This document shows positions 1,663 through 20,492 of a DNA stretch of 64,000 nucleotides, piece by piece. The stretch's first letter is position 1, and every line of letters starts with the position of its first letter. The notes under the pieces were generated by a model that did no database searches, was not told where the DNA came from, and saw nothing but the letters and a program-made list of their open reading frames with translations. Made by a program: the position numbers and the translations under genes. Origin of the DNA: Arachidicoccus sp. BS20 (GTDB lineage Bacteria; Bacteroidota; Bacteroidia; Chitinophagales; Chitinophagaceae); contig NZ_CP015971.1 in assembly GCF_001659705.1 (NCBI RefSeq), positions 2,171,029 through 2,235,028 on the forward strand, written 5' to 3'.

Positions 1663-2541
1663 ATGGAAATTAGAACAGATTTATTTCTTGGCGACAGCAA
1701 AAAGATATTGAAACAACTTCCCGATAATTCTGTTGATTTAATCGTTACTTCTCCGCCTTATGCAGATCAACGCAAAGCAACTTATGGTGGTATTTCACAC
1801 AATAAATATGTTGAGTGGTTTTTACCAATAACAGAAGAGCTATTACGTGTTTTAAAACCAACAGGAACATTTATTTTAAATATAAAAGAAAAAGTTGTTG
1901 ATGGAGAACGTAGCACTTATGTGATGGAATTGATTATTGAAATGCGTAAACAAGGCTGGTTATGGACTGAGGAATTTATATGGCATAAGAAAAATTCTTA
2001 TCCGGGAAAATGGCCTAATCGTTTTCGTGACGCATGGGAAAGATTACTTCAATTCAACAAAGACAAAAAATTCAATATGTATCAAGAAGAAGTAATGGTT
2101 CCAATGGGCGATTGGGCAAAATCAAGATTAAAGAATTTAAGCGATACAGATAAAGTAAGAGATAATTCAAAAGTAGGAAGTGGCTTTGGTAAGAACATTT
2201 CAAATTGGCTAACAAGAGATAAAGCATATCCAACAAATGTTTTGCATTTAGCGACAGAATGTAACAACAAGAATCACAGTGCAGCATTTCCTGAAGAACT
2301 TCCTGAGTGGTTTATTAAATTATTTACAATGGAAAATGACGTGGTGCTTGACCCATTTATGGGCTCAGGAACGACGATTCATGTTGCTAACAGAATGAAA
2401 CGTAATTCAATTGGAATTGATATTGTGCCCGAATATTACAAAATGGTAAAAGAACAAGTAGAGCCTATTGAATTATATTTATTAGAGTCAAAAGTAAAAT
2501 ATGAAACCCCTAAATCTAAAGGACGTTACGCAGTACGTTGA
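1663..2541 (+). CDS. DNA methyltransferase, beta class (motif IV before motif I), probably N4-cytosine or N6-adenine
   Basis: SPPY motif (DLIVTSPPY) lies upstream of the AdoMet-binding motif DPFMGSGTT. The gene sits in a segment noticeably more AT-rich than its neighbours. Confidence 0.8.
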   Translation: MEIRTDLFLGDSKKILKQLPDNSVDLIVTSPPYADQRKATYGGISHNKYVEWFLPITEELLRVLKPTGTFILNIKEKVVDGERSTYVMELIIEMRKQGWLWTEEFIWHKKNSYPGKWPNRFRDAWERLLQFNKDKKFNMYQEEVMVPMGDWAKSRLKNLSDTDKVRDNSKVGSGFGKNISNWLTRDKAYPTNVLHLATECNNKNHSAAFPEELPEWFIKLFTMENDVVLDPFMGSGTTIHVANRMKRNSIGIDIVPEYYKMVKEQVEPIELYLLESKVKYETPKSKGRYAVR

Positions 2542-3238
2542 AGACAATATTGGAACTTTTCATCAAAAAAGAATTGCAGGTTTGAATGGTTTGAGATTAA
2601 AGAAAGTTCTTGCCAAAAAAAATCCTTATTTATTCAAAGCAAAATATATTTTAACTGCTCAAGATATTATTAAAAACTTGACAGACGCTTTTATTTCATC
2701 GCAAGAAGAAACAATCTTTGGAGATTGGTTAGAGGGACTTGCAATATTTATTAACAGTAAAGTTTATAATGGTCGTAAATCGGGCATTCAAGGAATTGAT
2801 TTGGAATTTGATAAAGACAACACCCGTTATATTATTACAATAAAATCTGGTCCAAATTGGGGCAATAGTTCTCAAATTGGAAAAATGAAAGCAGATTTCA
2901 AAACTGCACAAAGAACACTTCGTACAAGCAACTCAAAATTGAACATTGTTGCAGTCAATGGTTGTTGTTATGGCAGAGATAACAGACCCGATAAAGGCGA
3001 TTATTTCAAATATTGCGGACAACATTTTTGGGAATTTATCTCCGGGGACAAAGAATTATATCTAAAAATTATCGAGCCATTAGGACATAAAGCCAAAGAA
3101 AGAAATGATGAGTTCATTCAATCTTATTCTCAAATGATAAATGTATTTACAAAAGAATTTGCGGATACATTTTGTAATGAAAACGGTTCTATAAATTGGA
3201 ATAAACTTGTTTACTTTAATTCTTCAACAACTCGATAA
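2501..3238 (+). CDS. Putative type II restriction endonuclease, cognate to the upstream methyltransferase; family not identified
   Basis: Overlaps the methyltransferase 3' end by 41 nt on the same strand and is similarly AT-rich. No other recognisable domain; the call rests mainly on context. Confidence 0.5.
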   Translation: MKPLNLKDVTQYVEDNIGTFHQKRIAGLNGLRLKKVLAKKNPYLFKAKYILTAQDIIKNLTDAFISSQEETIFGDWLEGLAIFINSKVYNGRKSGIQGIDLEFDKDNTRYIITIKSGPNWGNSSQIGKMKADFKTAQRTLRTSNSKLNIVAVNGCCYGRDNRPDKGDYFKYCGQHFWEFISGDKELYLKIIEPLGHKAKERNDEFIQSYSQMINVFTKEFADTFCNENGSINWNKLVYFNSSTTR

Positions 3239-17472: not shown

Positions 17473-17976
17473 TTACACTTTTACTCTTTCTTTCAGCAAC
17501 TCCACAAACTTTAAAGTTGCAGGACAATACTCGATATTTTGTTTGTGAATATGTAAATAATCAACTGCTTTTTTCTTTGCCAAGTGCGGGAAACCTGCGC
17601 AGTCTGCAGGTCTTACTTCATAAATGGTGCACATATTTGTCTTCAAATCAAGGAACTGGCAAGGCTGTGAAACGTTTACCCAATCTGTTTCACCTTTCTC
17701 TTGTTTGAGCCATTTTTCTTTAAATGCTTTGGGACTCACGCGTAGATGTGAAGCAATACGCTTAATGTCTTGCGACGTAAAAGTGGGTGTCATTTTCTTG
17801 CAACAATTGGCACAGGAAAGACAATCAATTTCTTTCCAGACTTCTTTGTCCGTTTCAGCCGTAATGTTGTCAATGCCTCGCGGGATATTGTTTTCAAGCT
17901 TTGTGATATAGCTTCTGTACGATTGTCGTTTTTGCTCAAATTCGGCTTTGAATTTTTTGAAATTGATGGGTGGCAT
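17473..17976 (-). CDS. YkgJ-family Zn/Fe-S cysteine-cluster protein
   Basis: CxxCxxCC cluster (LSCANCCKK) plus additional Cys. The start codon is uncertain; a GTG at 17994 would make the longer form. Confidence 0.6.
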   Translation of the reverse strand: MPPINFKKFKAEFEQKRQSYRSYITKLENNIPRGIDNITAETDKEVWKEIDCLSCANCCKKMTPTFTSQDIKRIASHLRVSPKAFKEKWLKQEKGETDWVNVSQPCQFLDLKTNMCTIYEVRPADCAGFPHLAKKKAVDYLHIHKQNIEYCPATLKFVELLKERVKV

Positions 17977-17994: not shown

Positions 17995-18765
17995 TTACAA
18001 AAAACGAATTTGTAAGTTTAGTTTAAAATAAAGTTGCTCATTATCTTTATAGACTGTTCCAAATTCGTGTCGTGTGCTACTCGCTGTTTCCAGTTTTGTG
18101 TTTGCATATAGATAATCTTCAAACTCGTTTCGGTTGTAAATATGATAACATAAAATTTCTCCGTTATCTTTTACAACTAAATGGCCGCCTGTCCCATCGA
18201 GTTCGCCTGTCCAAACCTTTGACGGCATCATTCCTAAAGCAATGTCCGTCAGAAAATGTTTGATTTTGTACGAATAAAACAGATGATGATTTGCCAAGTT
18301 GTACCCAAGCGGATTTGCTTTTGAAATTTCGGCAACCAAGTCCGAAATTTTGGAATGAGGAGAAGTGAAGAACAAAAATAAAATTTCTGAAACAATTTTT
18401 GGTAAAGCACTGTCAATTAAAACAAGATTGTTTTCAAAGACAGAACTCTCGGTATTTTCAAACTGTAATTTTCCTTTGAGTTCTTTTAGCTTTTCAATAC
18501 GGTCTTTGATTTTACTTTTGGTGTTTATTGCATTGATTTCCGCAATCTGCTTTGACGTCAAATTCAACTCATTTATTTTGTAAATGAAGTTGGTTGTTTT
18601 CCCTGCGTTCAACAAAGTTGAAGCGCTGCCAAGTTGAGATTTTATACTAAAACCGAGTTCTTCTGACTGGTTGTAAAATTCATCTTTAGAAAATGTAATT
18701 TCCCTATCCAAATCTGCAACGACGGCTTTATTTTCTACAAATGAATATGTAAAAAGCGAACTCAT
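17995..18765 (-). CDS. Hypothetical protein, possibly nuclease-like, translationally coupled to the upstream HNH endonuclease
   Basis: Overlaps the HNH gene by 4 bp (ATGA) and is AT-rich. A motif ELD...HLVVKD faintly resembles PD-(D/E)xK, and the segment GFSIKSQLGSASTLLNAGKTTNF is reminiscent, from memory only, of HpaII-type endonucleases. None of this is verified. Confidence 0.4.
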   Translation of the reverse strand: MSSLFTYSFVENKAVVADLDREITFSKDEFYNQSEELGFSIKSQLGSASTLLNAGKTTNFIYKINELNLTSKQIAEINAINTKSKIKDRIEKLKELKGKLQFENTESSVFENNLVLIDSALPKIVSEILFLFFTSPHSKISDLVAEISKANPLGYNLANHHLFYSYKIKHFLTDIALGMMPSKVWTGELDGTGGHLVVKDNGEILCYHIYNRNEFEDYLYANTKLETASSTRHEFGTVYKDNEQLYFKLNLQIRFL

Positions 18766-19553
18766 TTTTTAAAAATTATTTGATAGTGATAATCTAAAAA
18801 CTCTTTTGACGGTAGAAATCTTTCAGGTAAATTGATTTTTTGATTTTCATATTTTTTGAAAAAATCGCTTACCACTTGTTCATTTGAATAGCTATCAAAA
18901 AATTTAGAAACTAAAATTTTGTATTCGGGCGTAACCGTAATATAACCTTTGTCAAAAGCTTTGTCGTGAATAGAATTTAAGCATAAACCATTGTGCGGAT
19001 TTATTCTGTTCTCCTTATCTTTCGCCCAAGGTTTTATATGACTTGCTACCAGAAAATCAGAAATAGACAAACCTGTGATACAACATTTCAAATTGTATGA
19101 AGATAAAATCGTGCTTCTGAAAAAACTTTGATTTACTCTTGTTTTGATTATTGTTTCTCGTTCTTTTCCTTCGGGCAACTCCGTCAAATCTATTTCCTCT
19201 ATTTCCTCAACTTTCTTATTTTGAAATTTCGCAATTAAGACTTCGCTTTCAAAAGCAAGTTTTTCCCAATTTCCATTAAATTCATTCCAAATATCTTCCT
19301 CTAATTTACTTCCATTTATTAAACCTGTAATTCCTTGTTTCTTTAATTCAGGGTCAAGTCGTCCAAAGTTTCCAATTTTCATATTAAGAGCAGAAGGCGA
19401 ACGTCCAAGTATGTTTGCGTATTTTATGATAGTTGGATTGTTTTTGCTACTACTTTTGAAAGGAACTTTGCAATAAACATTAAAAGCAATTATAGTTTCG
19501 TCCCTTGTCCAATTATTACTTTTTGCCATTGTCTTAAAATTTCCTCTGTTCAC
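18762..19553 (-). CDS. HNH endonuclease (HNH_2/PF13391-like) with an N-terminal domain of unknown function
   Basis: CCITG...SHIKPW...NRINPHNGLCLNSIHDKAFDKGYIT is the canonical restriction-type HNH motif. Confidence 0.65.
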   Translation of the reverse strand: MNRGNFKTMAKSNNWTRDETIIAFNVYCKVPFKSSSKNNPTIIKYANILGRSPSALNMKIGNFGRLDPELKKQGITGLINGSKLEEDIWNEFNGNWEKLAFESEVLIAKFQNKKVEEIEEIDLTELPEGKERETIIKTRVNQSFFRSTILSSYNLKCCITGLSISDFLVASHIKPWAKDKENRINPHNGLCLNSIHDKAFDKGYITVTPEYKILVSKFFDSYSNEQVVSDFFKKYENQKINLPERFLPSKEFLDYHYQIIFKK

Positions 19554-19589
19554 AAACTTACATTTTATTCAAATAACTTTACAACAATT

Positions 19590-20492
19590 ATGTGGGACAG
19601 TTATAAAAACGGTTACAAGGCTTATTTGCAATTGGAAAAATCGCTGAGCGAAAATTCAGTCGAGGCATACTTGCGCGATGTGGACAGATTGACTTTTTTT
19701 CTTGCGGAAAACGGTTTGGAAAAATCGCCGAAGGAAATTGATTTAAAAACATTACAAGCATTTGTCAAATATATCGCAAGCTTTGGATTAGCGGCGAGTT
19801 CGCAAGCGCGAACCATTTCGGGTATCAAAGGTTTTTATAAATATTTGTTGAGCGAAAATATTACAGATACAGACCCGACAATATTGTTAGAACTTCCTAA
19901 ACTCAAACGCGCATTGCCGGATGTATTGAGTTTTGAAGAGATTGAAAAAATCATTTCGCAAATAGATTTAAGCACAAACGAAGGGCATCGCAACAAAGCA
20001 ATTCTTGAAACGCTGTATAGTTGCGGCCTGCGCGTGAGTGAAGCCGTGAATTTAAAAATAAGTTGTTTGTATTTGAAAGATGGTTTTGTGCGCGTAATCG
20101 GCAAAGGCGATAAAGAAAGACTGGTGCCGATTGGCGATGAAGCCATTAAATATATCGGCATCTATTATAACGATTACCGGCGCAAACTTAATGCCGCAAA
20201 GGATTTTGAAGATTTTCTTTTTCTCAACAACCGGGGCAAAAATCTTTCGCGTGTGATGATATTCTTAATCATTAAAAGCCTGGCGCAAAAAGCACAGATT
20301 AAAAAAAATATTTCGCCGCACACGTTTCGGCATTCCTTTGCCACGCATTTGGTAGAAGGCGGTGCGGATTTGCGTGCAGTTCAGTTAATGCTGGGACATG
20401 AAAGCATTACCACAACAGAAATTTATACGCATTTGGATAAGCATTTTTTGCGCAGCACTTTGCAGGAACATCATCCGGCATTCAGAAAATAA
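19590..20492 (+). CDS. xerD: Tyrosine site-specific recombinase XerD
   Basis: C-terminal HTFRHSFATHLVEGGADLRAVQLMLGHESITTTEIYTHL (R-H-R-Y catalytic set), 300 aa. Confidence 0.8.
   Translation: MWDSYKNGYKAYLQLEKSLSENSVEAYLRDVDRLTFFLAENGLEKSPKEIDLKTLQAFVKYIASFGLAASSQARTISGIKGFYKYLLSENITDTDPTILLELPKLKRALPDVLSFEEIEKIISQIDLSTNEGHRNKAILETLYSCGLRVSEAVNLKISCLYLKDGFVRVIGKGDKERLVPIGDEAIKYIGIYYNDYRRKLNAAKDFEDFLFLNNRGKNLSRVMIFLIIKSLAQKAQIKKNISPHTFRHSFATHLVEGGADLRAVQLMLGHESITTTEIYTHLDKHFLRSTLQEHHPAFRK

Follow-up and report, generated by a model that had tools for sequence, protein, structure and literature searches.

Type II restriction–modification (R-M) systems pair a methyltransferase with an endonuclease of the same specificity. 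In the HpaII system, which acts on CCGG, these are M.HpaII and R.HpaII (family PF09561), accompanied by Vsr. R.HpaII was placed by Orlowski and Bujnicki in an 'unknown superfamily' without a PD-(D/E)XK motif, and it is listed as subtype P,E (PMC2441816). Type IIE enzymes such as NaeI and EcoRII have separable catalytic and effector DNA-binding domains, an assignment that is not established for HpaII. Another described group, the modification-dependent (type IV) endonucleases, comprises VcaM4I (6YEX), TagI (6GHS) and phosphorothioated-DNA (PT-DNA) restriction enzymes of the ScoMcrA/SprMcrA type, in which an HNH_2 nuclease domain is combined with an EVE, SRA or sulfur-binding domain (SBD) reader. 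Nuclease genes may also exist as alternative alleles, which we take to be the case for the dam-replacing gene (drg/NmeBII) of Neisseria meningitidis and for the free-standing homing genes of T-even phages. Here, we describe a two-gene nuclease module with likenesses to all of these, found in a 64,000-nucleotide stretch of Arachidicoccus sp. BS20 (contig NZ_CP015971.1, positions 2,171,029 to 2,235,028), hereafter the window.

The module consists of an HNH nuclease gene (HNH) and a shorter gene, R', and it resembles each described system in part. Judged by its sequence, the R' product represents a restriction enzyme of the HpaII family reduced to its C-terminal two-thirds, 76–84% identical to the matching C-terminal part (~250 residues) of family members of 358 amino acids (aa). 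It lacks canonical residues ~1–50 and ~82–131 and rejoins the canonical sequence at ~132. Unlike in an HpaII operon, no methyltransferase, Vsr or controller accompanies it, HNH occupies the place of the methyltransferase gene (M), and R' is coupled to HNH rather than to M; the linked methyltransferase and endonuclease of a type II system are not found in the pair. The HNH protein shares an HNH_2 domain with intact catalytic residues with VcaM4I, TagI and the ScoMcrA type, whereas their reader is replaced by a homeodomain/Myb-like helical domain and an HpaII-derived partner is added. As with the dam-replacing and T-even homing genes, a nuclease gene stands in the place of a methyltransferase and spreads by recombination via conserved flanks. 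Here, however, an entire type II R-M operon is targeted, and part of the restriction gene is kept and conserved.

Comparison with related loci shows that an HNH cassette lineage moves among Bacteroidota and beyond, characteristically in HpaII-type (CCGG) R-M operons. Cassettes enter these operons by insertion between inverted repeats of ~80 nucleotides (nt) resembling the Rfam motif Flavo-1, and by recombinational replacement. The window copy is secondary: HNH and the surviving two-thirds of R.HpaII remain, while M, Vsr, a small open reading frame (ORF) termed orf71 and the repeats have been lost without trace. It is very probable that the pair derives from a mobile HNH cassette of overwritten HpaII operons and was secondarily placed between the genes xerD and ykgJ. 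It derives from a known type II system, to which a known class of HNH has been joined, and its evolutionary behaviour is unusual and apparently undescribed; full-text literature searches returned no paper linking HpaII-family enzymes with this HNH. The initial annotation, made from the sequence alone, had proposed an undescribed two-component defence system. This stands as far as a foreign nuclease module of two genes without a methyltransferase is concerned, and falls in that the module stems from HpaII operons overwritten by an HNH cassette and is not free-standing.

The two genes and their products

The module and its parts lie on the minus strand as follows.

18762–19529, minus strand: HNH gene from its conserved ATG start (19529), 255 aa, coordinates including the stop
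18762–19553, minus strand: long form of the HNH ORF, opening at GTG 19553, 263 aa
19200–19529, minus strand: N-terminal helical DNA-binding-type domain of the HNH protein, residues ~1–110
18765–19166, minus strand: HNH_2 nuclease domain and C-terminal extension, residues ~122–255
17995–18765, minus strand: R' gene, short HpaII-family protein of 256 aa, coordinates including the stop
18658–18765, minus strand: fast-evolving N-terminal segment of R', 36 codons, with weak homology to canonical residues 53–81
17998–18657, minus strand: conserved body of R', 220 codons, corresponding to canonical residues ~139–358
18762–18765, minus strand: ATGA overlap of the HNH stop and the R' start, read from the sequence

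The true start of HNH is almost certainly the ATG at 19529, since the homologues all begin MAKSNNW and are ~255 aa long. The GTG at 19551–19553 that opens the long form overlaps a putative −7 promoter box. Both products are 100% identical to database proteins of Arachidicoccus ginsenosidimutans (P0001, 255 aa; P0121, 256 aa). The ATGA overlap and the low guanine-cytosine (GC) content of the pair, both pointed out in the initial annotation, are confirmed. The two-gene island has 32.2% GC against 39.3% for the window, with local values of 0.30–0.33 over 18400–19600, 0.38–0.42 in xerD and 0.375–0.40 in the ykgJ-like gene.

The restriction-type HNH motif recognised at the outset is equally sound: Pfam HNH_2 matches at 1.8e-12, and the family-invariant residues S163, H164, P167, W168, N177, N180, G181, D189 and D193 are all kept. 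The PADLOC model PDLC04132 ('HNH'), which is dedicated but undescribed, covers the full protein at 5e-94. The C-terminal half also matches PADLOC type II restriction endonuclease (REase) models and NCBIfam PT-DNA_restrict (NF045808), the latter at 66.3 bits against a cut-off of 180 and over that half only, which places the protein outside the family. Among proteins of known structure, the type IV enzyme VcaM4I is the nearest (6YEX; 2e-14, residues 130–262), and the nuclease domain is closest to VcaM4I and TagI. In the AlphaFold model (mean predicted local distance difference test score, pLDDT, 73.6), the N-terminal domain is all-helical and confident, and it appears homeodomain/Myb-like, of the helix-turn-helix (HTH) type. 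The family of this domain comprises 1716 clusters at 50% identity; full-length members mostly have ~230–270 aa, with many shorter fragments and few longer proteins. A phage origin of the HNH family was rejected on its near-absence from phages (50,697 phage records yielded six weak matches, and IMG/VR one).

The second gene had been left without a confident assignment, which profile searches now provide: R' matches Pfam RE_HpaII (PF09561) at 2.7e-96 (323 bits against a cut-off of 25; profile positions 122–359 of 359) and PADLOC REase_II at 4.7e-86, and it is not a methyltransferase. The PD-(D/E)XK-like motif suggested for it (ELD...VVK(D)) was rejected, as its Asp is not conserved, being replaced by E, N or Q elsewhere in the family. 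With 256 aa, R' falls short of the full-length HpaII architecture (~358 aa), and the first 105 residues of canonical HpaII relatives are not encoded in any frame of the window. A profile of nine such R' N-terminal segments, which span the first 33–36 codons in this class, scores up to 18 bits against canonical HpaII residues 53–81 (shuffled maximum 9.7); blastn gave no significant match for a DNA origin of this segment in M, R or repeat sequence.

Residues D21, E48, D123, H129 and D130, invariant among divergent full-length members, fall in the parts missing from R'. By contrast, K144, D220, D276, K301, H310 and R356 are kept, and of the retained family-invariant residues counted only one differs in the window copy (Y297H). 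This pattern suggests that R' may be the DNA-binding part of the enzyme without its catalytic centre, the loss of which would explain why R' can be tolerated in a window with 173 CCGG sites. Autonomous cleavage of CCGG by R' is unlikely given that these sites are unmasked. Sequence and profile searches found no relative of the HpaII-family protein in the PDB. A candidate active site, D130-X11-S142-x-K144, could not be confirmed, given the unknown superfamily, the lack of a PDB relative and an AlphaFold2 (AF2) model that is unreliable over residues 1–156.

As originally stated, no methyltransferase gene adjoins the pair and neither protein is one. Searches of the window with M.HpaII-like proteins (tblastn) gave no match, and no C5 methyltransferase motifs were found in its ORFs. 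The only methyltransferase gene in the 64 kb, an N6_N4 enzyme at 1663–2541, was rejected as a missing partner, having its own EcoO109I-type endonuclease.

HNH cassettes in HpaII operons

Vsr, M.HpaII, orf71, HNH and R.HpaII were mapped in 80 species-representative loci with an HNH gene of 64–87% identity. These are mostly from Bacteroidota, with single metagenome-assembled genomes labelled Desulfobulbaceae, Leptospira, Acidobacteria, Sulfurimonas and Melioribacter. The HNH/R' pair is also found in other genomes, in unrelated contexts. HpaII-family sequence lies directly 3' of HNH in 33 of the 65 loci with enough downstream sequence, and only 5 of these 33 sequences begin at residue 3 or earlier. 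Upstream, remnants of M.HpaII were detected in 21/71 loci, none of them complete, and in 6 loci the M gene is split, with pieces on both sides of the HNH unit. An uninterrupted M.HpaII stands next to HNH at a single locus (L041; 1/71), without its last ~14 codons: this ORF keeps all C5 motifs and directly precedes HNH, clipped C-terminally and fused to the repeat. At 16 loci, HNH is accompanied by an R remnant without M within 6 kb, and HNH occurs alone in 20/60 loci.

Related loci carry the full operon of Vsr or controller (C), M.HpaII-like gene and R.HpaII, and two uninterrupted M-R loci (L090 and L093) served as reference for the insertion positions. M is interrupted at nt 860/877 in L018, L022, L020 and L026, at nt 779/853 in L072 and at nt 628/712 in L014, and the HNH unit follows M nt ~1223 in L041. 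The insertion points thus differ, each M junction has lost 16–84 nt, and neither a target-site duplication nor a single conserved insertion site was found for the HNH unit. The preference of HNH for HpaII loci is strong. In L018 (5063–8376) and L022, the R.HpaII downstream of the split M.HpaII is nevertheless an intact ORF of 358 aa with a normal start. Such an endonuclease, deprived of its methyltransferase, would be expected to be lethal.

A self-splicing intron was considered for the split M gene of L018 and discarded: the Rfam search returned no group I or II intron, only inverted matches to Flavo-1 (RF01705). These flank the orf71-HNH unit, at 58 bits upstream (gathering score 42) and 33–36 bits downstream. 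A covariance model built from them detected the upstream copy in ~30 loci and the downstream copy in ~11, and in L072 the 80-nt arms are 88% complementary. Flavo-1 has been proposed as an RNA, has no known function and is reported in either orientation relative to transcripts; in HNH loci, however, it behaves as the terminal inverted repeat of a DNA cassette. This would give an orphan Rfam motif a role. Such inverted repeats on both sides of HNH are confined to the relatives, as neither Rfam nor the custom covariance model found Flavo-1-like repeats in the window.

Additional small ORFs accompany HNH in the relatives. The acidic orf71 (69–73 aa), absent from the window, overlaps the HNH start by 14 nt in 25/80 loci; it has no Pfam match and matches phrog_10158 at 1e-18, and might be an inhibitor or immunity protein. 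In L012 (6765–7010) and L041 (6762–7004), HNH and R.HpaII are separated by an 80-aa ORF, which likewise begins at the ATGA that contains the HNH stop.

L018 5793–6014, L001 5799–6014 and L176 4297–4506: orf71
L072 5715–5794 and 6779–6858: Flavo-1-like arms
L018 5716–5794 and 6773–6849: Flavo-1-like arms
L177 6001–6774, L178 5440–6213 and L175 6001–6774: HNH', a paralogue of HNH
L184 3968–5759: Neisseria gonorrhoeae remnant with an intact HNH homologue of 249 aa

Replacement of an operon can be followed in Flavobacterium metagenome scaffolds whose flanks are 98.5–99.7% identical. Scaffolds L177 and L178 carry C(HTH)-M(421 aa)-R.HpaII(359 aa)-HNH', while L176 carries C-orf69-HNH-R'-HNH'. In L176, 956 bp (orf69 and HNH) stand in place of 1623 bp (M from ~codon 7 and R codons 1–134), and what is left of R (R') matches the intact R with 100% identity. 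The cassette has deleted the only local M. Presence and absence alleles with exchange in the flanks are therefore documented for these relatives, not for the window copy. The paralogue HNH' (41% identity, same architecture) follows the intact C-M-R.HpaII operon, and in Flavobacterium covae HNH' is preceded by a C5 methyltransferase, a HATPase_c_3 protein and an ORF of 302 aa. These contexts link the HNH class more generally to cytosine-methyltransferase loci. The trees of HNH and R are incongruent: the HNH proteins of L022, L026, L176 and L051 are 91–94% identical and their R proteins fall in different clades, which indicates that HNH entered HpaII loci repeatedly.

A similar arrangement occurs in gonococcal chromosomes, where Vsr (60% identity), an M.HpaII-like fragment (58%, residues 58–164), a small ORF and a full-length HNH homologue (52%) lie between pheS and pheT. 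This is the NgoAXIII remnant, described as Vsr and a truncated, inactive C5 methyltransferase without mention of the HNH gene; CCGG in gonococci is methylated to 5-methylcytosine (5mC) by NgoAXIV in 25/25 strains (PMC6789123). Its layout is that of the related HNH loci, but no HpaII-type restriction remnant lies downstream, and the phylum is different. Tying the remnant to the same cassette would provide a tractable model. The locus used here (L184), a 2.17-Mb N. gonorrhoeae chromosome, is filed as a plasmid in PLSDB.

Insertion between xerD and ykgJ

In the window, the pair occupies the gap between two neighbouring genes.

17995–19548, minus strand: inserted segment of ~1.55 kb (boundaries ± ~15 bp), holding only the two ORFs and a 19-bp leader
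19553–19560, minus strand: TAAGTTTG, putative −7 promoter element native to the region upstream of ykgJ, at a distance of 24 nt from the HNH ATG
19590–20492, plus strand: housekeeping xerD-type recombinase (Pfam Phage_integrase and SAM_1), left flank of the target site
17473–17976, minus strand: ykgJ-like CxxCxxCC protein gene (Pfam PF03692, 1.8e-14), the third gene, behind the insert

A search of metagenomes with the ykgJ-like protein provided 80 related xerD/ykgJ loci for comparison. In most of these (>60), the two genes are divergently adjacent, with a gap of usually ~80–130 bp and in a few cases 0.2–1 kb. Neither HNH nor HpaII sequence occurs in any of the 80. The window resembles L095, the closest empty site, up to and including GTTTGTGAA at ~19549, and again from the ykgJ ATG (17976). 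By this comparison, native upstream sequence is retained in the window through TAAGTTTGTGAA (19560–19549), followed by 19 foreign bases, the two ORFs and the 18 bp that separate the R' stop from the ykgJ ATG. The pair is a 1.56-kb horizontally acquired insert in a conserved xerD/ykgJ intergenic region of a Chitinophagaceae genome, and confidence in this origin as a whole is high. Conservation of the neighbourhood, proposed as a check on the initial annotation, favours a foreign module that recurs in unrelated contexts. The proximity of xerD is incidental: this gene belongs to the conserved surroundings of the target site and not to the element, adjoining ykgJ in most relatives that lack the pair.

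The consensus of the Bacteroidota −7 promoter element is TAnnTTTG, which TAAGTTTG matches, and the empty site L095 carries TAGGTTTG at the equivalent place upstream of ykgJ. Since the insert sits between this −7 box and ykgJ, the pair is probably transcribed from the ykgJ promoter. A promoterless cassette would thus now form the first part of the ykgJ transcription unit, with R' translationally coupled to HNH.

Selection on the truncated HpaII-family protein

Whether R' is a working protein or a remnant was addressed by the ratio of non-synonymous to synonymous substitution rates (dN/dS), calculated by segment for three pairs that share the same truncation junction subtype (WIN, window copy).

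L179/L180: C-terminal 220 codons, dN/dS 0.07 (dS 1.04); N-terminal segment, dN/dS 0.25 (dS 0.92)
L181/L182: C-terminal 220 codons, dN/dS 0.07 (dS 0.68); N-terminal segment, dN/dS 0.45 (dS 0.25)
WIN/L006: C-terminal 220 codons, dN/dS 0.05 (dS 1.99); N-terminal segment, dN/dS 0.24 (dS 1.65)

None of the pairs contains an internal indel, and the N-terminus of L182 is three codons shorter. The dS values of the two segments are similar in L179/L180 and WIN/L006 (0.25 against 0.68 in L181/L182). This similarity suggests that the whole short ORF co-diverged in its truncated state, and it argues against repeated refreshing of the R' C-terminus from full-length genes. A whole-gene dN/dS of WIN against L006 had been set aside as proof of selection, being confounded by possible recombination with full-length R, and was replaced by the segment-wise analysis. 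With dN/dS of 0.04–0.15 for HNH, strong purifying selection acts on both the R' body and HNH, in keeping with a foreign module of two selected genes. Members of the 256-aa R' class (253–258 aa; WIN, L006, L050 and L179–L182) directly follow HNH in every locus examined, and the class probably represents a functional protein. An HNH nuclease would then have as its partner two-thirds of a classical type II enzyme, maintained by strong selection.

Two further lines of evidence for a partnership were abandoned. Coupling as a selected feature amounts to a weak excess only (~12/21 remnants coupled against 7 expected), and its ATG is intrinsic to HNH. Apparent HNH-R' fusions of 375–609 aa in L001, L055 and L058 hold an internal stop, and the single remaining case, P0054 (425 aa), comes from one short contig and gives too little support.

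Possible mechanism and alternative explanations

In the mechanism that we favour, both proteins would be functional. HNH, with its helical DNA-binding N-domain and HNH_2 nuclease, would be the catalytic subunit. R' would not restrict DNA on its own but serve as a partner that either binds DNA, probably reading CCGG, or has a regulatory role. A module that persists with no methyltransferase has to spare the unmodified DNA of its host. It would therefore act as a defence nuclease that is self-sparing and independent of a methyltransferase, either type IV-like or triggered in some other way, with a trigger other than HpaII-type CmCGG methylation, on which dependence is unlikely. This mechanism, with HNH cutting and R' reading DNA or regulating, is put forward tentatively; the statement as a whole, from the origin through a functional R' to a defence nuclease, comes slightly short of an even call. 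If the pair is a self-sparing nuclease, it would constitute a new two-protein restriction-like enzyme with possible value as a tool.

Several observations weigh against this proposal. HNH is often solitary and so does not need R'. The HNH protein contains no modified-base reader (SRA, EVE/PUA or sulfur-binding domain), and CCGG, with its 173 sites in the window, is not avoided. A methyltransferase may be encoded elsewhere in the 3.5-Mb genome. The view of R' as catalytically dead comes down to which invariant residues are missing, and the AF2 model of HpaII has pLDDT <50 at residues 1–51 and 84–156, largely the segments missing from R'. The low dN/dS of R' could partly reflect recombination with functional full-length R, as in L176. 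R remnants next to HNH have 39, 60, 79, 115, 118, 166, 183 and 220–262 aa or are near full length, with ~12 coupled and ~9 not coupled, a pattern that looks like decay in many lineages. The junction ATG itself belongs to the conserved HNH 3' end (AAAAAATGA), present at at least ten loci with downstream ORFs of different lengths, so any in-frame remnant will look coupled.

This last group of observations would fit a decay remnant, in which only HNH matters and R' is the leftover 3' part of a dead gene, open by chance and supplied with its ATG by HNH. Remnants of almost every length beside HNH, a lineage (L176/L055) in which the remnant shrinks from 234 to 115 aa, an M that is always broken or else clipped C-terminally and fused to the repeat (L041), and the ATGA start intrinsic to HNH all speak for it. 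Nevertheless, the 256-aa class keeps its exact length and frame, with dN/dS of 0.05–0.07 over 220 codons at dS of 0.7–2.0 that match the N-terminal dS; its counted invariant residues are kept save Y297H, and R' moved together with HNH to the new locus in the window. We therefore regard simple decay as quite unlikely. A selfish cassette is judged unlikely as well: HNH would be a homing-type nuclease, or a passenger of homologous recombination, that replaces HpaII alleles, and R' would be kept as a take-over aid, e.g. as a dominant-negative or site-occluding protein blunting the resident R.HpaII once M is destroyed. Such behaviour is suggested by presence/absence polymorphism in 99.7%-identical backgrounds with breakpoints in shared flanks, by incongruent HNH and R phylogenies and by at least five positions within HpaII loci, far above chance for a 1.2-kb target. 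Terminal inverted repeats at both sides, an HNH that joins a DNA-binding domain to a nuclease, and the same signature in the gonococcal NgoAXIII remnant between pheS and pheT add to it. On the other side, the insertions neither share one conserved site nor show a target-site duplication, and the junctions lose 16–84 nt of M; the HNH_2 class is typical of restriction enzymes and not of classical homing endonucleases; and the family is almost absent from phages. Strong purifying selection in hundreds of lineages, with many solitary copies away from HpaII loci, suggests a host-level function, and disruption of M with R intact (L018, L022) should kill rather than favour. A more far-reaching possibility, doubtful at present, is that the HNH cassette is an R-M overwriting element: it would seek HpaII operons across phyla (Bacteroidota to Neisseria), delete M and the catalytic third of R, and recruit the DNA-reading rest of HpaII as nuclease partner, the Flavo-1 'RNAs' being its inverted-repeat ends. 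If true, a type II system would be turned in situ into a different defence or selfish module, and replacement of M with truncation of R by one nuclease cassette would be a recurrent route of R-M turnover as opposed to random decay.

The remaining alternatives turn on methylation. HNH, alone or with R', could be a conventional type II endonuclease, methylation-sensitive and specific for CCGG or a related site, with the genome protected by a methyltransferase encoded beyond the 64 kb. Both proteins match type II REase models of PADLOC, the HNH of L041 follows an M gene with all C5 motifs, HNH' follows an intact C-M-R in L177, the gonococcal homologue resides in genomes with CCGG methylated by NgoAXIV (25/25 strains), and CCGG is not depleted in the window. 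This is nonetheless distinctly improbable: among the related loci, the sole uninterrupted M.HpaII beside HNH (L041, 1/71) has lost its last ~14 codons, 16 loci combine HNH and an R remnant without M within 6 kb and 20 have HNH alone, the L176 cassette removed the only local M, and one third of the enzyme is missing from R'. Alternatively, HNH might be an McrA-like type IV nuclease for CmCGG, which, by analogy with the neisserial dam-replacing gene, would explain the displacement of M.HpaII. M is interrupted, truncated or replaced in all HNH-bearing HpaII loci examined except L041 (last ~14 codons lost), the nuclease domain is closest to VcaM4I and TagI, which depend on 5mC or 5-hydroxymethylcytosine (5hmC), and the only methyltransferase in the window is the EcoO109I-paired one (1663–2541), which is not linked to the pair. 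Against this stand the M ORF with all motifs next to HNH in L041, the coexistence of HNH' with an intact M-R, an intact homologue (52% identity) in gonococci with 5mC-methylated CCGG, and an N-domain of helix-turn-helix type in place of an SRA, EVE or SBD reader. Acquisition in a methylated cell would moreover be self-lethal, and this alternative is very improbable.

Other features of the window

A separate, apparently intact type II R-M pair is encoded 15 kb from the HNH/R' pair, at 1663–3238 on the plus strand. Its N6_N4 methyltransferase gene (1663–2541; Pfam 2.5e-48) overlaps an EcoO109I-family endonuclease gene (2501–3238; 1.9e-93).

Some palindromes are strongly avoided in the 64 kb (GGCC 8, GATC 11 and CCWGG 25 sites), compared with CCGG (173), CGCG (175), GCGC (263) and GTAC (131). 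These counts suggest that GGCC, GATC and CCWGG, but not CCGG, are or have been under restriction pressure.

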